DNA of 64,000 nt, taken from Candidatus Caldarchaeum subterraneum (GTDB lineage Archaea > Thermoproteota > Nitrososphaeria_A > Caldarchaeales > Caldarchaeaceae). Location of the stretch: positions 1,413,481 through 1,477,480 of the forward strand of contig BA000048.1 in assembly GCA_000270325.1 (NCBI GenBank), given 5' to 3'. The position numbers were made by a program, and so were the translations under genes. Positions 2,716 through 27,651 of this stretch are shown piece after piece. Numbering within the stretch: the first letter of the stretch is position 1; the number at the start of each line of letters is the position of its first letter. The notes beneath the pieces are model-generated. The model did no database searches and was not told the origin of the DNA. It worked only from the letters and a program-made list of their open reading frames with translations.

Positions 2716-3332
2716 ACCTGACGACCACCCCAGCTTTTGCCGAGAAACTTTAGGTTACCAGCTGAGGAGAGAAGCAGAAAGGTTATCGGGTTTTCACGAT
2801 CTTTGACAAGCAGTGAGAGCATGTAGAGAACTATGAGGAAGTCGTTGAAGCTTGGAGGATGCGGCGGGGCCTGTTCTATTCTTGTATCCTTCTCCATTGT
2901 AGAAATGAATTCAAGAGCCTCCTTAATCCCCTCCAGCAAATTTTTCGGAATGAGGTTGCGCCAAGCCAGCATGTTAACTAAGTTGATGAGGTTATCTCTA
3001 CCAATTATCACAACCATCAGTTCTACGGCGGCCAACGTTGTGATGAAGGAGTCAAGTTCGTTGAAGCCCTGACGCAGCACCGACTCCTTGGCCAAACCCC
3101 CCTCTTGATGCGTCTTTGTATGCTCCTCAGCCGAACTGTCTGAGGCCAGTTTTGGCCGATTTTCCTCAACAACGACATCCTCAACCGCCCCTCTCAGGTA
3201 GACAAACGGGTTCTCAGCAGCATTCATCATCTCCCTAATTTCCAGCAAAGTCTTCTCAAGGGGCTCCCGGATGCGGCGAATTTCCTCCTCAAGCTTCTTT
3301 ATCCGCTTATCCCCGGTAACATTTTCGGCCAA
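2712..3332 (-). CDS. arlX: Archaellum protein ArlX/FlaX-like (coiled-coil, crenarchaeal type)
   Basis: 206 aa. It is the first gene of the minus-strand archaellum operon, has a coiled-coil N-terminus, and overlaps arlG by 4 nt. Confidence 0.45.
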   Translation of the reverse strand: MAENVTGDKRIKKLEEEIRRIREPLEKTLLEIREMMNAAENPFVYLRGAVEDVVVEENRPKLASDSSAEEHTKTHQEGGLAKESVLRQGFNELDSFITTLAAVELMVVIIGRDNLINLVNMLAWRNLIPKNLLEGIKEALEFISTMEKDTRIEQAPPHPPSFNDFLIVLYMLSLLVKDRENPITFLLLSSAGNLKFLGKSWGGRQV

Positions 3333-13270: not shown

Positions 13271-13344
13271 GGGCCGGTAGATCAGTCTGGAAGATCGCCC
13301 GCTTGGCGTGCGGGAGGTCCTGGGTTCAAATCCCAGCCGGTCCA
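13271..13344 (+). tRNA. tRNA-Ala (anticodon GGC), no encoded CCA
   Basis: Cloverleaf GGGCCGG/CCGGTCC acceptor with the G3:U70 Ala identity pair, anticodon loop CTTGGCGTG, T-loop GGTTCAAATCC. A TATA-like ctttatagaaa lies about 30 bp upstream. Confidence 0.9.
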
Positions 13345-13377
13345 CTTGTTTATGGATAAGGTTTAACAGGGATACTG

Positions 13378-19370: not shown

Positions 19371-20423
19371 TTGAACATGCCGAAGATAAGGGATGCGGCT
19401 ATTCACGGTTATGGTTGCTATCTTCCAAGGTATAGATTATCTGGTGAGGAGATTGCAAGGGTATGGGGTAAATCCTCCGCCGAGCTGCCTGTTAAGGAGA
19501 AGGCTGTGGCGGGGCTGGATGAGGACACTATAACCATGGCCGCCGAGGCGGCGCGGATAGCCTTGGCTCGGGCCGGTGTGGAGCCCTCAAAGGTTCAGGC
19601 GGTTCACGTGGGAACAGAGTCCAAACCATACGCCGTCAAGCCTTCTGGAACTCTGGTCGCCGAAATCCTCGGAGTATCCCGCCATGTAACCACCGCCGAT
19701 TTCGAGTTCGCCTGCAAAGCGGGGACAGAGGCTATGCAGATGGTTACCGCTCTCGTCGAGACAGGGAGAATTGAGTTTGGGCTTGCCATAGGGGCGGATA
19801 CCGCGCAGGGGAGGCCGGGTGACGCCCTTGAATACACCGCTGCAAGCGGGGCCGCCGCCTACCTCATAGGACGCAACGGCTCAGACTGTATTGCGAAATT
19901 TGAATACTCGACATCATACGTGTCTGACACGCCCGACTTCTGGAGAAGAAGCTATGAACGGTATCCGATGCATGGGTCCCGCTTCACAGGCGAGCCAGCT
20001 TACTTCCACCACACATTGTCCGCCTTAAAGACCCTGCTAGAAGAAAACGGTTTCACCATCAACGACATAGACTATTTTGTTTTCCACCAGCCCAACGTAA
20101 AATTCCCCCTCGCGGTGTCAAAGATACTTTCCATACCTGTCGAGAAGGTGAAGCCTGGAATTGTTGCGGATGTGGTGGGTAACACTTACGCCGCGTGCTC
20201 GATGATTGGGCTTGCAAAGGTCTTAGACATAGCTAAGCCGGGCCAACGTATAGTGATGACGTCTTATGGCTCGGGAGCCGGGAGCGACTCATTTGTGTTA
20301 ACCGTGTGTGACGGGATTGAGGAGAAACGTGGCAGGGGCCCGACTTTTAGCCAACTTCTCAGCCGTAGAAAACCGATAGATTACTCGACCTATCTAAAGT
20401 TCAGGGAGAAGATAAGGGTGTAG
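19371..20423 (+). CDS. Hydroxymethylglutaryl-CoA synthase (archaeal)
   Basis: N-terminus IHGYGCYLPRYRLSGEEIA and thiolase-fold condensing enzyme. First gene of the HMGCS-thiolase-DUF35 triad. Confidence 0.9.
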   Translation: MNMPKIRDAAIHGYGCYLPRYRLSGEEIARVWGKSSAELPVKEKAVAGLDEDTITMAAEAARIALARAGVEPSKVQAVHVGTESKPYAVKPSGTLVAEILGVSRHVTTADFEFACKAGTEAMQMVTALVETGRIEFGLAIGADTAQGRPGDALEYTAASGAAAYLIGRNGSDCIAKFEYSTSYVSDTPDFWRRSYERYPMHGSRFTGEPAYFHHTLSALKTLLEENGFTINDIDYFVFHQPNVKFPLAVSKILSIPVEKVKPGIVADVVGNTYAACSMIGLAKVLDIAKPGQRIVMTSYGSGAGSDSFVLTVCDGIEEKRGRGPTFSQLLSRRKPIDYSTYLKFREKIRV

Positions 20424-20427
20424 CGGG

Positions 20428-21582
20428 TTGCGGGCTGTATTGGTCGGAGCGGGGTTGACGAAGGTGGAGGAGCACTGGGACAAAGGCTTGACAGAGCTTA
20501 TGGCGGAGGCTTCTCTTCAAGCACTCGATTCAGCGGGCGTCTCAACAGTTGACGCGGTATACGTCTCAAACGCGTTCGGACAAGTTTTGCAGGAGCAGTC
20601 AAACATAGGAGCATACCTCGCGGAGGAGCTTGGCATTAGGGGTGTCTCTGCTTCAAGGTTTGAGGCAGGTGGGGCCTCAGGCTTGGCCGCTGTGATAGCC
20701 GCTGTAGCGGCGGTTTCATCCGGTTTATACAAATCTGTTCTCGTTGTCGGCGGCGAGAAAATGTCTGAAGCAACGTCAGAGGATTTCGTGTCGCTGCTCA
20801 CGACTGAAGAGTCGGCCGAATCGGTTGCAGCCCTTGGAGTGACGCAATTGGCGGAGGCGGCTCTGCTCTACAAAGAATACTTGAAACGCAACCGCCTAGA
20901 GCATGAAGATGTTGCATATTTTTCCGTCCTTGGTCACGAGCATTCTCAAACCGCGCCGCATGCACAGTATCAGTTTAGAATCACCCTCGACAACGTAGTA
21001 AACTCGCCCGTCGTGGCTGACCCCATCAGACGACTCGAGACAACCGCTCCAGCAGATGGAGCAGCCGCTGTTTTAATTGCTTCCCGGGAAACGGCCCTAA
21101 AAACGGATGGTTACAGGGCCGTGGTTTCAGGAGTAGGCGCGGCCACCGACTATCTGTCGCCGTTTGACCGAGAGGACCCTCTGTGGCTCAGTAGCTTGTC
21201 GCTGGCTTCTCAGAGGGCTTTGGAACTGGCGGGGAGAAAGGTGTCCGAACTCGATTTTCTGGAGGTTCACGATAGCTATAGCCTGTTGGCGCCGCTTTCG
21301 CTTGAGGCTATTGGGGCGGCTGAGGCTGGTGAACCCTGTCATCTTGCCCGCAAAGGCTGGTGGACGTTGTCCGGAGAGATGCCAGTCAACACCTTCGGTG
21401 GTTTAAAGGGCCGCGGAAACCCAGTCGGGGCCTCTGGCCTCTACGCCTTGGTCGAAAGCTATCTTCAACTGACTGGTCGCGCTGGAAAAAATCAGGTCGA
21501 CGGTGCGAAGGTGGGGATGGTGTCCTCGATGGCTGGGCTGGGCTCGCTAGCGGCAGCCGTTGTCGTGGAGGCGTGGGTGTAG
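20428..21582 (+). CDS. Acetyl-CoA C-acetyltransferase (archaeal thiolase)
   Basis: 384 aa thiolase-like protein, 4 nt after HMGCS. Confidence 0.85.
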   Translation: MRAVLVGAGLTKVEEHWDKGLTELMAEASLQALDSAGVSTVDAVYVSNAFGQVLQEQSNIGAYLAEELGIRGVSASRFEAGGASGLAAVIAAVAAVSSGLYKSVLVVGGEKMSEATSEDFVSLLTTEESAESVAALGVTQLAEAALLYKEYLKRNRLEHEDVAYFSVLGHEHSQTAPHAQYQFRITLDNVVNSPVVADPIRRLETTAPADGAAAVLIASRETALKTDGYRAVVSGVGAATDYLSPFDREDPLWLSSLSLASQRALELAGRKVSELDFLEVHDSYSLLAPLSLEAIGAAEAGEPCHLARKGWWTLSGEMPVNTFGGLKGRGNPVGASGLYALVESYLQLTGRAGKNQVDGAKVGMVSSMAGLGSLAAAVVVEAWV

Positions 21583-21982
21583 TATGTCGACGAGACCATC
21601 CTCTTACTGGCGTCTCCGCCCATATCTCTACAGGCTTGAGGGAAACCGTTGCACACAGTGCGGCCACTTTAACCCGCTCGCGCGAAAGATATGTAGGAAA
21701 TGTGGCTCCCGCCGCCTCGAGCGAGACAGGCTCGCCGGCCGTGGTAAACTAAGGCATTTTACTGTTGTGTATCAGCCTCAGACAGGATTTGAGAAAACGG
21801 TTCCATATGTGGTCGCTTGGGTTGAGATGTCTGACGGAACCCAGATAATAGGCCAAGTTACAGACTGTGAGCCATCGGAACTTTCCGTAGGCATGGATGT
21901 CGAAACGGTTGTGAGAAAAATACGTGTAGATGGTGAGTCTAAGCTGATAGTTTACGGAGTAAAGTTTAGGCCAGTGCTTTAA
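21560..21982 (+). CDS. DUF35 OB-fold/zinc-ribbon scaffold protein of the thiolase/HMGCS complex
   Basis: CTQCGHF...CRKCGS zinc ribbon followed by an OB fold. Overlaps the thiolase 3' end. Confidence 0.8.
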   Translation: MSWRRGCSMSTRPSSYWRLRPYLYRLEGNRCTQCGHFNPLARKICRKCGSRRLERDRLAGRGKLRHFTVVYQPQTGFEKTVPYVVAWVEMSDGTQIIGQVTDCEPSELSVGMDVETVVRKIRVDGESKLIVYGVKFRPVL

Positions 21983-22773
21983 CGGTTGGCTAGGCTTTTC
22001 CAGAGAAGAATTACAGCATACTCCCTTGGTATCGATTCTTGCTGAGCTATTTTCTCAATCTCCGCCCTAGCCACGGCCTCGGCCCGCTGTCCATGTGAGA
22101 GAATGTATTTTTTCTTGATTTCTTCGAAGAGCTTGGCCGGCTCCTCTTTGTTGGTGGTTATGTCGGCTATGTTGCGTGGGAGGTCTGAAAGCTGTTTAAC
22201 CATTTCCTCCACCATCTTTAACCTGTTGCGGAGGCTTGCGAGCTTTTTCCGCAGCTCAGGTATCTTGGCCTCCAGCTCCTCTCTGATGCCCACACCTCTG
22301 CCAGAGTCCGAGTCCTTCTCCAGCTGCATCGTGTTGAGCTCTATGCTTGACCAGATAAGCTCCTCCTCGACCTGCGCAAACTCCGACCCTAAAGCCTCTT
22401 TCGCTGCCTTCAACCTCTCCAAGACCTCTCCGCTTTTCTCCAGCAACGCGTTCCTTTTTTCGGCAAGTCTGCTCAGGATATTTCTTACCAGCTGAGGCCT
22501 TAGTTCCTCCATCTTAATGCAGTAAAGCATGAAGTTACGGTCCAAACCGCGTAAACGTTCAATTTCCCGCATAAGTTCATCATACATCTTAAGAGCCTCG
22601 TCAAGCTCGTCGCCGACCGGCTGCTGCGTCACAGCCTCCTCGACAGGCTTCACACTCTCCTCTTTGACAGTTTGTTCCTCTTGTGGTGGTGTGGGAGGAA
22701 CAACCTCTACATCTGGAGATGTCTCAGGCTTCTGCGGCGACGGCTTGATACGGAGAACAATCTTCTTCGGCAA
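21979..22773 (-). CDS. Coiled-coil protein, hypothetical (downstream of and co-oriented with the JAMM gene)
   Basis: 264 aa with a Pro/Glu-rich N-terminus and long heptad-like segments. Confidence 0.4.
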   Translation of the reverse strand: MPKKIVLRIKPSPQKPETSPDVEVVPPTPPQEEQTVKEESVKPVEEAVTQQPVGDELDEALKMYDELMREIERLRGLDRNFMLYCIKMEELRPQLVRNILSRLAEKRNALLEKSGEVLERLKAAKEALGSEFAQVEEELIWSSIELNTMQLEKDSDSGRGVGIREELEAKIPELRKKLASLRNRLKMVEEMVKQLSDLPRNIADITTNKEEPAKLFEEIKKKYILSHGQRAEAVARAEIEKIAQQESIPREYAVILLWKSLANR

Positions 22774-23517: not shown

Positions 23518-23535
23518 AATCCTTATATATGCTGC
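23518..23535 (+). promoter_or_regulatory. TATA-like element (aatccttatatatgc) about 22 bp upstream of the Ub gene
   Basis: Sits in the 140-bp divergent intergenic region between the JAMM and Ub genes. It shares the ccttatat core with the arlB promoter element. Confidence 0.35.
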
Positions 23536-23553: not shown

Positions 23554-23817
23554 ATGAAGATTAAGATTGTTCCCGCTGTCGGAGGAGGTTCACCCTTGGA
23601 GCTCGAGGTTGCTCCAAACGCCACCGTCGGCGCAGTTCGGACGAAGGTTTGCGCTATGAAGAAACTGCCACCCGACACCACCCGCCTAACCTACAAGGGT
23701 AGAGCCCTCAAAGACACCGAAACTCTTGAGAGTCTCGGCGTGGCTGATGGAGACAAATTCGTACTCATCACGCGGACGGTGGGTGGATGTGGAGAGCCAA
23801 TACGTCGAGCTGCCTGA
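23554..23817 (+). CDS. Ubiquitin homolog (pro-form: beta-grasp ending in GlyGly plus a 9-aa C-terminal extension CGEPIRRAA)
   Basis: LPPDTTRLTYKGRALKDTETLESLGVADGDKFVLITRTVGG aligns with ubiquitin [41 protein letters not shown]. The N-terminal MKIKIV strand resembles MQIFVK. Confidence 0.85.
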   Translation: MKIKIVPAVGGGSPLELEVAPNATVGAVRTKVCAMKKLPPDTTRLTYKGRALKDTETLESLGVADGDKFVLITRTVGGCGEPIRRAA

Positions 23818-24295
23818 AAACGCGTGGTACAGGCGGCTGGCTCTCGAGTATGCTTTGATTCAGGAGAATGAACCCACCTTCACACCCGTCGAAAACGACC
23901 TAACTCATTACGAGGGAGTCATAGTCGGCTCAGGCGAATATGAGGGAGGCTTTTTCAGAGTAGAAATAATCATTCCACGGTCTTACCCATATTTCCCACC
24001 CGATGTTATTTGGCACACACGGATATGGCATCCAAACTTCTCTGACAGCGTCCCCGCAAGAGTCTGTGAATCAATTTTCAAAGACCACTGGTCACCCTCT
24101 CTCCGCATAGTGGCCGTAATCGAGTCTTTGAGAAACCTTTTGACAAACCCCAACCCCGAGGACCCGCTCAACCCCGTCGCAGCATTTGAGTACAAGAACA
24201 GGCCCGACCTCTTCTACAGCCGTGTTAGGCAGTTTGTCGAAACATATGCTACGCCTGAGCAGGCTTTCGGAAAGAAGCGTTGGAAGGGTTTGTAG
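23726..24295 (+). CDS. Ubiquitin-conjugating enzyme E2 (UBC fold). Start is uncertain: ATG 23726/23747 or GTG 23783/23789; it overlaps the Ub 3' end
   Basis: UBC hallmark HPN motif with the downstream catalytic Cys (RIWHPNFSDSVPARVCESIF). The N-terminal helix is RRLALEYALIQENEP. Confidence 0.8.
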   Translation: MRVSAWLMETNSYSSRGRWVDVESQYVELPENAWYRRLALEYALIQENEPTFTPVENDLTHYEGVIVGSGEYEGGFFRVEIIIPRSYPYFPPDVIWHTRIWHPNFSDSVPARVCESIFKDHWSPSLRIVAVIESLRNLLTNPNPEDPLNPVAAFEYKNRPDLFYSRVRQFVETYATPEQAFGKKRWKGL

Positions 24296-25479
24296 TGTTG
24301 GGTGAGGTTGACGCGCTGTCGAGGTACGATCGCCAGCTACGGCTCGAGGGATGGGACCAGAACAAGCTCCTGTCGGGTAGGGTGATTGTAGCAGGTGTGG
24401 GGGCGCTTGGATGCGAGGTTGCGAAAAACCTCGCTCTTATGGGAGTTGGCGAGCTCCTCCTCATAGACAACGACTATGTCGAGCTTTCCAACCTCAGCAG
24501 ACAGATGCTCTACACCGACCAAGACATAGGAAGACCAAAAGCCTCTACGGCTGAGAAAAAAATATCCTTGATGAATCCTCTCGTGAAGGCGAAAGGCCTG
24601 CACACAGATGTCCGAAAAATCCCCGAGGAAACCTTCGCCGAGGCCGATGTCATAGTCTCAGCCGTCGACAACTGGCCGACAAGAAGATGGATGAACTCGA
24701 TGGCGGTGCATGTCGGAACTCCGCTTGTCGACGTAGCCACCGACGGCTACTATGGAAATGTTCAAACAGTGATACCCGGTGTCACCAGCTGCCTGGAATG
24801 CCATGCAGAGGCCCTTATTCCCTCGGACATACAGGCCTCGGAATGCTCTCTACGCCGCCGCACCCCAAACGACCTCGTCAAAGACCTTAGTGAACGAGGC
24901 ATATCAATAAACTTGTCCGATGCCGAGACTCTCTTCCAACACAACATCAAAACAGTCTACGACATCAAGTTCGCGCCGCAGACAGTGTTGGATCAAATGG
25001 ATAAGTCACTCAGAGAACAAGTCATCCAGCTCCGTTCACTGCTTAACCCCAAGATGCCCGCTCTACAGAGCATATCAGCAACCGTCTCAGGCCTTGCCTC
25101 GTTCGAAGTAGTCCGTTTACTTCATAAAGGTTCTCTGGGCAGGTCGTTGAACGGTATGATGGTTTTCGACGGGCTGAGGGGGAGGCTTTCGCGTATAAAG
25201 CTGGAGAGAAACGTGAACTGCCACGTATGCGGCTACAGCGAGGACAAGCCTGTGCAGATAAATGTTGCGCCTAACGAAACTATCGCCGACCTAAGAGAGA
25301 GAATATCCAACCTTCTAATGTTTCCTGACACCCGTTTACAACACGGCGCAAAACTATTGGATGACACGGCTGATATTACATCGGCAGGCATATGTGATGG
25401 AGACATACTTTATATCCATTCAAGCAGGAGAGCAACACCGGTGGCTGTGAAGGTGAAGCTGATTGAGGCTGGTGATTAG
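24280..25479 (+). CDS. Ubiquitin-activating enzyme E1-like (ThiF/MoeB/UBA family) with C-terminal ubiquitin-fold domain. Likely start is the GTG at 24295 overlapping the E2 stop (taGTG)
   Basis: YDRQLRLEGWDQNKL plus the Rossmann motif VAGVGALGCEVAKNL. A Cys-containing crossover region (CLECH...C) and a beta-grasp-like C-terminus. Confidence 0.85.
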   Translation: MEGFVVLGEVDALSRYDRQLRLEGWDQNKLLSGRVIVAGVGALGCEVAKNLALMGVGELLLIDNDYVELSNLSRQMLYTDQDIGRPKASTAEKKISLMNPLVKAKGLHTDVRKIPEETFAEADVIVSAVDNWPTRRWMNSMAVHVGTPLVDVATDGYYGNVQTVIPGVTSCLECHAEALIPSDIQASECSLRRRTPNDLVKDLSERGISINLSDAETLFQHNIKTVYDIKFAPQTVLDQMDKSLREQVIQLRSLLNPKMPALQSISATVSGLASFEVVRLLHKGSLGRSLNGMMVFDGLRGRLSRIKLERNVNCHVCGYSEDKPVQINVAPNETIADLRERISNLLMFPDTRLQHGAKLLDDTADITSAGICDGDILYIHSSRRATPVAVKVKLIEAGD

Positions 25480-25690
25480 AGAGGTCAACGCAGGGTTTTG
25501 GAACCCCTTTGAGGAGCCGAAGCCAAGGCCGAAGCAAGAGAACTGTGTAATTTGTGGCCTGGAGATGGGGAATGAAAAAACATATTCATGTCCTCACTGT
25601 GGAGCAGTTGGTCACATGTCGTGTTTCGACGACTGGCTGGTGGTGAAGCAGACGTGCCCGCTTTGCCGCAGGCCGCTGGTAGAGATGTGA
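25463..25690 (+). CDS. Small RING-type zinc-finger protein (putative E3). Likely start is the GTG at 25472 overlapping the E1 stop
   Basis: CVICx10CPHCx4Hx2Cx10CPLC, a C4HC3 cross-brace spacing, in a protein of about 72 aa. Confidence 0.8.
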   Translation: MRLVIREVNAGFWNPFEEPKPRPKQENCVICGLEMGNEKTYSCPHCGAVGHMSCFDDWLVVKQTCPLCRRPLVEM

Positions 25691-25691
25691 G

Positions 25692-26003
25692 ATGAGCGGA
25701 GAAGAAAACGAGAAAGTAATCGAGCTGGACTATTTGGAGACGCCGAAAGGAGCAGTAGCAAGGTTCGAGGGTGTCCGGCAGCTGGCTGAGGTTCTTGCAG
25801 AGGTTATCGAGGAAATTGACAAGATGAAAGAGCGGCTGCAAACACTGTCCGAAAGCAGTCAGACTCCCGAGAACCTCGAGCGCAGGCTGAAATACATAGA
25901 GGACCAGCTGATTGTGCTTAGCGACGACGTGAGAGAGATATTAAACGCCCTCGGGGAGTTGTCTGCGACGGTTGCGCAGATAAAAAAGGCTTTGAAGCTA
26001 TGA
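25692..26003 (+). CDS. Small helical/coiled-coil protein, last gene of the Ub operon
   Basis: The ATG sits 1 nt after the RING gene stop (tgagATG). 103 aa, acidic and helical. Confidence 0.4.
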   Translation: MSGEENEKVIELDYLETPKGAVARFEGVRQLAEVLAEVIEEIDKMKERLQTLSESSQTPENLERRLKYIEDQLIVLSDDVREILNALGELSATVAQIKKALKL

Positions 26004-26906
26004 TGTCAGGAAGGCTCGTCTCATCTCTGTGATTAGCTCGTTAAGTTCGGTTCGACGTCTCTCCATCTCAGCTATCTCTCTGGCCAGCGTCTCCTTGTAG
26101 GCTTCCAGCTTCTTAACCTCCTCCCTCAACTTGTTGGAAGTCTCTATCAAAGTCTCCGCTTCTGCCTTGCTTTTCTCCAGAGCTGCTAGACGCTCCTCAA
26201 GCTCCCTCTCCCTGCGTATCATCCTCTCCATCCTTATCTCCCGCAGCTTAAACAGCTTATCCATCTCTCTTCCAAAGTTTTCAAGCTTTTTCTGAGCCTC
26301 CTCAAATGATGTGAGGTAGCGTTCCGACAGGATGTTTATCTCTGTCTCGAGCGCTTCTTTCTTGGTGATAAGCTGCTTCAGCGTCTCCTGCGCCTCCGCT
26401 ATCTGCTTCTCCTTTGACTCAAGCTCCTCACGCCACTTCAGAACCTCCTCGCGAAGCCTAGACAAGCTCTCCCTCTCCTGCATAAGCCTCTGAACTTCCT
26501 TAACCAGCTCAGCACGCTGGTTCGACAAAAGGTCAGCCGTCTCATGCAAGCTCTCACTAAGCGACTTGACCTCCTCCGTTAACCCCCTATACGAGTCCAG
26601 CGCCTGGTCCAGAAGATACGCCTTCTCGACAACAGACTGCAGGGATGACAGAGTTCTCTGAGGAGATGAAACCTGCTCAAGAACCTGGCGGACATCCTCC
26701 TTGAGCTTGGCCAAGGCTTCTTCGAGCAGGCTTATTCTTTCTTCAAGCTTTTCTATGACCTGTACCCTTATGGCCGCGACCTCTTTACGGAGGTCGGCTA
26801 TGCTGTCTGACTTTCTCGGCAGCAGACCCATGGCTGAATTTGGGGTCTGCATGATTATAAACCCTACTTGGTAGTGTAAGATAGAGAATGGCCAAGTATT
26901 GTTCAA
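25998..26906 (-). CDS. Long coiled-coil protein, hypothetical
   Basis: 302 aa, essentially all heptad-rich E/K/R/L sequence. Convergent with the Ub operon. Confidence 0.4.
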   Translation of the reverse strand: MNNTWPFSILHYQVGFIIMQTPNSAMGLLPRKSDSIADLRKEVAAIRVQVIEKLEERISLLEEALAKLKEDVRQVLEQVSSPQRTLSSLQSVVEKAYLLDQALDSYRGLTEEVKSLSESLHETADLLSNQRAELVKEVQRLMQERESLSRLREEVLKWREELESKEKQIAEAQETLKQLITKKEALETEINILSERYLTSFEEAQKKLENFGREMDKLFKLREIRMERMIRRERELEERLAALEKSKAEAETLIETSNKLREEVKKLEAYKETLAREIAEMERRRTELNELITEMRRAFLTS

Positions 26907-27651
26907 AGGTTTTCGTGGGGCATGTTTTTATAAGGTGGGGCATCTGGGTTTAATCGGCATGGTTGTGTCTGAGAGACGGTTGCTCGTTCGGTTTTTTCAG
27001 ATAGGCTCGGTGCTGGCTTTGGCGGGCAGCATACATGTGCTGACCCTTCTCCTTCCATGGTACACTGTAAGGGCTGACAGCGTTTCAACCTCTGTTTTGA
27101 GCGGCTACCTGCTACCCGAGACACTGGCCCTCTCAGTGGCCGGAGGAGTTTTGGCGGGTCTGTCTTTGTTGGTGACATCCTTTAGCCAGCGTCCCATGGC
27201 GGTGAGAACCGTGCTAGTTGTCTTATCGCTTTTAGGAGGGGTGCTAGCCATGGTTTCTCCGCTCTATCTCGGGCTTGTCAGGGTTCCGGCTCTAAGCGTG
27301 GCTGGCGAGCCGGGCATAGGGTTCTTCATAGCACTTTTCTCCGCCATAGTTATTCTTGCGTTAGGAGGAGTGGCTCTTATGACACGGCCGCGTGTGGTCG
27401 AGATTCCATATCAAGGCTATGGTGGCGTGAGCGGGGCTACAGTGTCGTCCACACAGCCGATGGAGACAACCTCTTTTGAAGTTGCCGGTGAGGTTGAGGA
27501 GGGAGTAGTCTGCCCCATTTGCTACACATCCGTGGAAGCTGAAAATGCTGTTAGATGCTCCTCATGCGGTGTAGTTTTTCACTCTGGATGCCTTGACGCA
27601 TATGTAAACATAAACGGTACTTGCCCAAACTGTGGAAGAGCCGTTGTCTAG
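26899..27651 (+). CDS. Polytopic membrane protein with C-terminal cytosolic C4HC3 RING/PHD-like zinc finger
   Basis: Four to five hydrophobic helices, then CPICx11CSSCx4Hx2Cx9CPNC. The spacing is the same as in the small RING protein at 25463. Confidence 0.6.
   Translation: MFKGFRGACFYKVGHLGLIGMVVSERRLLVRFFQIGSVLALAGSIHVLTLLLPWYTVRADSVSTSVLSGYLLPETLALSVAGGVLAGLSLLVTSFSQRPMAVRTVLVVLSLLGGVLAMVSPLYLGLVRVPALSVAGEPGIGFFIALFSAIVILALGGVALMTRPRVVEIPYQGYGGVSGATVSSTQPMETTSFEVAGEVEEGVVCPICYTSVEAENAVRCSSCGVVFHSGCLDAYVNINGTCPNCGRAVV

Follow-up and report, generated by a model that had tools for sequence, protein, structure and literature searches.

Why does an archaeal ubiquitin gene run past its Gly-Gly and into the gene that follows? 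The question arises from one locus in the window, by which we mean the whole 64-kb stretch of DNA that was analysed (64,000 nucleotides). Here the ubiquitin reading frame reaches TRTVGG, continues with CGEPIRRAA and only then meets a TGA stop codon. We consider it very probable that the locus is a ubiquitin operon whose pro-ubiquitin is cut by Rpn11 and then activated by E1, and that the tail is a tolerated by-product without sequence-specific function. The presence of the tail and its removal by Rpn11 are correct, yet both had been described in detail before, for this same sequence. What is new is modest: the E2 start codon is placed by comparison, and data from 60 related species show a labile propeptide that follows the E2 frame.

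The ubiquitin operon and its surroundings

The reading frame at 23554..23817 on the forward strand encodes 87 amino acids, with a C-terminal end of ...TRTVGGCGEPIRRAA / ...LITRTVGGCGEPIRRAA, that is, TRTVGG-CGEPIRRAA. It bears out the preliminary description, which had the frame running nine codons past Gly-Gly with this same tail; the accompanying claim that tail and E2 gene overlap in different frames, at the 5' end of E2, also stands, the E2 frame being +1 relative to that of ubiquitin. Only the first base of the tail falls outside the overlap. The precursor contains a ubiquitin-family β-grasp domain (Pfam PF00240, above the gathering score), and an exact-sequence look-up identifies it as CSUB_C1474 (BAJ51325.1 / UniRef100_E6N8B8). 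The full precursor, residues 1-87, is the construct in PDB entry 2MQJ; residues 1-78 are present in 6FJ7, 5ZEW and 6FNN, and 6FNO also contains this ubiquitin. Chance is of no concern: the precursor is identical over its full length to BAJ51325.1 and to the 2MQJ construct, and 12 close species have a junction built in the same way.

Table 1. Features of the ubiquitin locus, in window positions.
Feature	Positions	Strand	Basis
Rpn11-like JAMM/MPN+ metalloprotease, CsRpn11, CSUB_C1473, 202 aa	22805..23413	-	Pfam JAB 1.5e-22; exact match to BAJ51324.1
TTATATA, putative TATA-box-like element, 24 nt 5' of the ubiquitin ATG	23523..23529	+	inferred from the letters
Mature ubiquitin part, 78 codons, Gly77-Gly78 at 23782..23787	23554..23787	+	Pfam ubiquitin 7.7e-13; BAJ51325.1
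Propeptide CGEPIRRAA, nine codons (23788..23814), and TGA (23815..23817)	23788..23817	+	ORF; PMC5654768
E2 ubiquitin-conjugating enzyme, CSUB_C1475, 168 aa, start GTG 23789	23789..24295	+	Pfam UQ_con 1.2e-29; BAJ51326.1
Ubiquitin/E2 overlap, 29 nt, two reading frames	23789..23817	+	coordinates
E1, ThiF-type adenylating enzyme with C-terminal ubiquitin-like domain	24295..25479	+	Pfam ThiF 1.7e-56
Small RING finger protein, srfp/E3-like, CSUB_C1477	25463..25690	+	Pfam zf-RING_2 6.5e-10; exact match to BAJ51328.1

The proteins of the window are identical to CSUB_C1473-C1477 of Candidatus Caldiarchaeum subterraneum; by exact-sequence look-up, ubiquitin, the 168-aa E2, the JAMM protein and the RING protein correspond to BAJ51325.1, BAJ51326.1, BAJ51324.1 and BAJ51328.1, respectively. 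The locus is therefore the ubiquitin operon of this organism, with Rpn11 on the opposite strand, followed by ubiquitin, E2, E1 and srfp (Table 1). Pfam searches of the neighbouring ORFs confirm the E2, E1 and RING genes and the adjacent, divergent Rpn11-like JAMM gene, and the arrangement is repeated in relatives. Five genes of the cluster were described as partially overlapping (Nunoura 2011, PMC3082918). The junctions downstream of E2 are as tight as that between ubiquitin and E2: the E2 stop and the GTG start of E1 share one base, 24295, and the 3' end of E1 overlaps the RING gene by 17 nt. The srfp start at 25463 agrees with a published primer (PMC5654768 supplement). Regarding the E1 start, TTG 24298 and TTG 24280 are alternatives to GTG 24295, and the annotation is inconsistent, with lengths of 399, 394 or 393 aa (394 aa with an MLGEVD start in BAJ51327.1, 393 aa in relatives as called by PGAP). 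The C-terminal ~90 residues of E1 form a ubiquitin-like domain (VQINVAPNETIADLRERI...GDILYIH), fragments of which several sources name 'ubiquitin-like domain-containing protein'; the domain is already listed in Supplementary Table 2 of PMC5654768.

If the TATA-box-like element upstream of ubiquitin is a promoter, the operon mRNA would be nearly leaderless. A Shine-Dalgarno role of the G-rich Gly-Gly codons was considered, with SD-like motifs 5' of the ubiquitin start in the 60 loci serving as a proxy for SD use. An SD-like GAGGAG lies 6 nt 5' of the ubiquitin ATG in the window; among the 60 relatives' loci the motif is not conserved. The 64-kb window contains no 16S rRNA, and its lone RNA family match is a tRNA-Ala (GGC) at 13271..13345 on the forward strand.

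Several coiled-coil genes flank the operon. Rpn11 is followed, after a gap of 31 nt and in the same orientation, by a gene for a predicted coiled-coil protein of 264 aa (21979..22773, reverse strand) that matched no Pfam family. It occupies the same position in 34 of the 60 Caldarchaeales loci, distant tail-less ones (27-32% identity) among them, and is a candidate for an uncharacterised partner in the Rpn11/ubiquitin system. On the other side, a 103-aa coiled-coil ORF (25692..26003, forward strand) starts one base past the RING stop and is conserved in 25/60 loci; it is probably the fifth operon gene of Nunoura 2011. A convergent coiled-coil ORF of 302 aa (25998..26906, reverse strand) is conserved in 24/60 loci. 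Pfam, NCBIfam and PDB sequence searches with these flanking genes returned just generic coiled-coil matches (SMC, Rad50, syntaxin).

Beyond them, at 26899..27651 on the forward strand, is a 250-aa protein with a C-terminal RING finger (zf-RING_2 1.9e-09). By eye, the ORF translation shows a hydrophobic N-terminal region that probably spans the membrane, and the protein is probably the second E3-like protein mentioned in Fuchs 2018. A tblastn search of the loci with 3-kb flanks, beyond which its position falls in most of them, revealed no full-length counterpart. The search matched six distant loci, only within or just past the srfp region; these are probably RING-domain cross-matches to srfp. 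On the other side of the operon, three consecutive co-directional genes at 19371..21982 (forward strand), two with 3-nt gaps, are unrelated to the tail; by eye, their translations resemble a thiolase-like condensing enzyme, a second thiolase-fold protein and a DUF35-type zinc-ribbon/OB-fold protein. This gene arrangement is seen in archaeal mevalonate-pathway operons.

Maturation of the precursor and origin of the tail

The nine extra C-terminal residues were already remarked upon in 2011 (PMC3082918). Pro-ubiquitin is cleaved by Rpn11 (CSUB_C1473), and loss of the nine-residue CGEPIRRAA propeptide was confirmed by tandem mass spectrometry (Hennell James 2017, PMC5654768); intact-mass spectrometry places the cleavage precisely after Gly-Gly (Fuchs 2018, PMC6043591). 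Full-length ubiquitin is refractory to E1, and the Rpn11-cleaved or GG-truncated form is activated and then handed along the E1/E2/RING cascade (PMC5654768). All of this biochemistry was performed in vitro with recombinant proteins; the organism is uncultured. Thus, both experiments on maturation proposed in the preliminary description, a mass-spectrometric search for JAMM cleavage after Gly-Gly and a comparison of the pro-form with the GG form in E1 activation, had already been published with the outcome that it anticipated, and its proposal that the adjacent JAMM protein matures pro-ubiquitin by exposing the Gly-Gly is established for the same protein (PMC5654768, PMC6043591). Calling this JAMM protein divergent, on the other hand, was mistaken: CsRpn11 is reported as one of the archaeal JAMMs that most resemble eukaryotic Rpn11 (PMC6043591) and gives a clear Pfam JAB match (Table 1). 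Its catalytic motif, E ... HxH-x7-S-xx-D, is present in the ORF as EVAGLL and HSHPGLDVFLSPTD, and exact matches to CsRpn11 chains are found in PDB entries 6FJU, 6FJV and 6FNN.

The sequence of events, as established by the published biochemistry, is as follows. Ubiquitin is translated as the 87-aa precursor, and the Rpn11-like JAMM protein encoded divergently next to it cuts after Gly78, releasing the nonapeptide CGEPIRRAA. Only after this cut can E1 adenylate the exposed Gly, and ubiquitin passes to E2 and the RING protein. The tail is an out-of-frame run through the first nine codons of E2, which starts one base past the Gly-Gly codons; with a stop codon missing at the tightly packed ubiquitin-E2 junction, it would persist as a tolerated by-product.

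The composition of the tail fits such an origin, since the ubiquitin frame here reads through E2 codons 1-10. First, the codon of residue 79 has the form N-(A/G/T)-T, because its second and third bases are also those with which the E2 start codon opens. In the window and its 12 closest relatives this residue is C, Y, V, F, N or D, all of which fit NAT, NGT or NTT. Second, Gly80 has no freedom: its codon, GGA, consists of the last base of the E2 start codon followed by the GA of E2 Glu2. Finally, in the window and in the relatives with nine-residue tails, the TGA that ends the tail arises from two conserved E2 codons of the ELPE motif, Pro9-Glu10 (CCT GAA). Wherever a Caldarchaeum-clade sequence depends on this CCT-GAA stop, its Pro codon is CCT; this invariance may reflect selection on tail length, or just shared ancestry. 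Codon differences were counted over the window and the 12 closest relatives, which represent 12 distinct junction sequences. The nonsynonymous share is 77% (197/257) in the first six tail codons, compared with 10% (293/2897) in the ubiquitin body and 23% in the E2 body. The earlier statement that the overlap constrains both sequences therefore requires qualification: the end of the tail is indeed fixed by the conserved ELPE of E2, but the amino acids of the tail are not conserved.

To compare the tail more widely, ubiquitin, its Gly-Gly codons and E2 were located in each of 60 loci, from as many Caldarchaeales species, that gave a ubiquitin alignment. The tail is missing in 23 of the 60 species, where a stop codon comes straight after Gly-Gly, and is 1-20 aa long in the other 37; among these 37 tailed ubiquitins there is no shared tail motif. 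In the tail-less loci the E2 start lies 5-7 nt downstream or, in a few, 59-81 nt. Three loci (L017, L029 and L037) have tails without an E2 overlap, so the overlap is not the sole route to a tail. On a neighbour-joining tree built from E2 and E1 (50 taxa), tail presence switches at least four times; all 19 sequences of the Caldarchaeaceae clade on this tree, the window included, have some form of tail. In 15 tail-less loci, too, the Rpn11 gene lies next to ubiquitin in divergent orientation, which shows that its retention is independent of precursor processing. The comparative data suggest that the tail has no sequence-specific function. Neither the link between tail and E2 start codon nor a survey of the tail across Caldarchaeales appears in PMC3082918, PMC5654768 or PMC6043591, and the word 'overlap' does not occur in the latter two.

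Two of the compared loci, both from Terraquivivens (L023 and L024), have ubiquitin tails of 18-20 aa and a peculiar E2 region at ~3230..3260 in locus coordinates. Here the E2 frame contains no ATG, GTG or TTG before the conserved N-terminus. TGG stands where sister species have a GTG overlapping the last Gly codon, and a CTG precedes GAG-GCC-TAC. Either these E2 genes start at a non-canonical codon, or they have a peculiarity that is not annotated.

With somewhat better than even confidence, we favour a more specific account of how the tail arose. The tail would be functionless and would result from loss of the stop codon at a packed, possibly translationally coupled ubiquitin-E2 junction, with residue 79, Gly80 and the tail end dictated by E2 and with at least four gains or losses. 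It would be harmless because a deubiquitinase, the pre-existing Rpn11, already cuts off anything after Gly-Gly. If this is true, ubiquitin maturation could come to depend on a protease by a neutral first step, which would offer a simple path to the precursor processing that is obligatory in eukaryotes.

The main competing explanation is that the propeptide is a selected safety catch, keeping new ubiquitin inert until Rpn11 licenses it and so coupling the supply of ubiquitin to deubiquitinase activity. The tail does gate activation biochemically, as the refractory pro-ubiquitin shows (PMC5654768), and the presence of a tail throughout the Caldarchaeaceae clade would suit such a role. However, more than a third of the related species keep the same operon with no tail at all, and Rpn11 adjoins ubiquitin whether or not a tail is present. 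The residues of the tail also bear on cleavage. Crystal structures of Rpn11 and of Rpn11-Ub were accompanied by cleavage-site mutants in which residues 77-81 were mapped for their effect on cleavage; the tail residues influence the cleavage rate, and the substitutions Cys79Glu and Gly80Trp block cleavage in vitro (PMC6043591). This blockage means that the tail is not wholly neutral: at the least, it must be sterically compatible with cleavage. Nevertheless, a tail with no conserved motif or length, in which most codon differences are nonsynonymous, is labile, and its sequence derives from the E2 frame; these properties argue against a regulatory meaning in the tail sequence. Thus, we regard a selected safety catch as unlikely, and retain the by-product explanation.

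The start of the E2 gene

The argument above places the E2 start at GTG 23789. The preliminary description had listed four possible starts, and an in-frame start-type codon does occur at each of the four positions; the first of them is TTG 23726, however, and not an ATG, and it is followed by ATG 23747, GTG 23783 and GTG 23789. Only the last is supported. The alternative is that E2 begins at one of the three upstream codons, which would lengthen the protein to 170-189 aa and extend the overlap further into the ubiquitin body.

The E2 frame is open from 23726, so the upstream codons are available in principle, and the E2 cluster holds one metagenomic gene call of 170 aa (P0027). However, among the four possible forms, the public protein collection contains only that of 168 aa, and an exact look-up found none of the window's 189-, 182- and 170-aa forms there. 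Comparison with the 12 closest species, whose E2 is 79-99% identical to that of the window, also points to 23789. A start codon homologous to it, one base after the Gly-Gly codons, is present in all 12 (7 ATG, 5 TTG), and in six it is the sole in-frame start candidate. The upstream candidates are sporadic: the homologue of 23726 occurs in one species, that of 23747 in one and that of 23783 in three, the last existing only where the Gly77 codon is GGT.

The protein itself agrees with the shorter form. E2 has a UQ_con domain with the HPN motif and the catalytic Cys, WHPNFSDSVPARVCE, in its ORF translation, and the Pfam match starts at residue 17 of the 168-aa form. E2 activity has been demonstrated experimentally, and the active recombinant enzyme of 168 aa has the N-terminus MESQYVELPENAW (MESQ...; PMC5654768 and its supplement). 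The comparison with relatives thus supports GTG 23789 as the start, from which the expected N-terminal peptide is (M)ESQYVELPENAWYR. The starts at 23726, 23747 and 23783, being unconserved and missing from the protein collection while the active recombinant E2 uses 23789, were rejected, and we judge an upstream start to be highly improbable.

Finally, the tail might be an error of assembly or sequencing, such as a stop codon lost in the composite metagenomic genome, which was indeed built from fosmid sequences (PMC3082918). This is next to impossible, because independent MAGs (L001, L002 and others) repeat the junction with its nine-codon read-through and several sources hold the exact 87-aa protein on record.

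Comparison with known precursor systems

The closest known system is the CsUb precursor with CsRpn11 (CSUB_C1474/C1473), to which the pair encoded here is identical residue for residue, with the same operon, CGEPIRRAA propeptide and protease. Eukaryotic polyubiquitin with its extra C-terminal residue or residues, the ubiquitin-ribosomal fusions and the tails of SUMO and NEDD8 likewise mask the Gly-Gly until a dedicated protease acts before E1; this likeness has been drawn in PMC5654768 and PMC6043591. The two differ, however, in the protease and in the source of the tail. In eukaryotes, cysteine-protease DUBs and ULPs do most of the precursor processing, and Rpn11 is confined to the proteasome lid. 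In Caldiarchaeum, a free Rpn11-like metalloprotease performs both precursor processing and deconjugation, and the tail comes from a gene overlap within the operon, of which eukaryotes have no counterpart.

SAMP precursors are also β-grasp modifiers in which the residues after Gly-Gly are removed by a JAMM protease, as in the CsUb precursor. The SAMP-type modifiers of C. subterraneum carry 89 and 12 residues after Gly-Gly (PMC3082918). CsRpn11 does not cut the SAMP precursors and CsJAMM does not cut the CsUb precursor (PMC6043591). Unlike CsUb, the SAMP modifiers are of the prokaryotic MoaD/ThiS-like type and operate without an E2 or a RING protein. Bacterial antiviral ubiquitination-like operons encode a Ubl, E1, E2 and a JAB protease that can trim the C-terminus of the Ubl; they belong to another lineage and have another role, phage defence, compared with the Caldiarchaeum operon. 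Among prokaryotes, the Caldiarchaeum system is the closest relative of eukaryotic ubiquitylation, as was established between 2011 and 2018.
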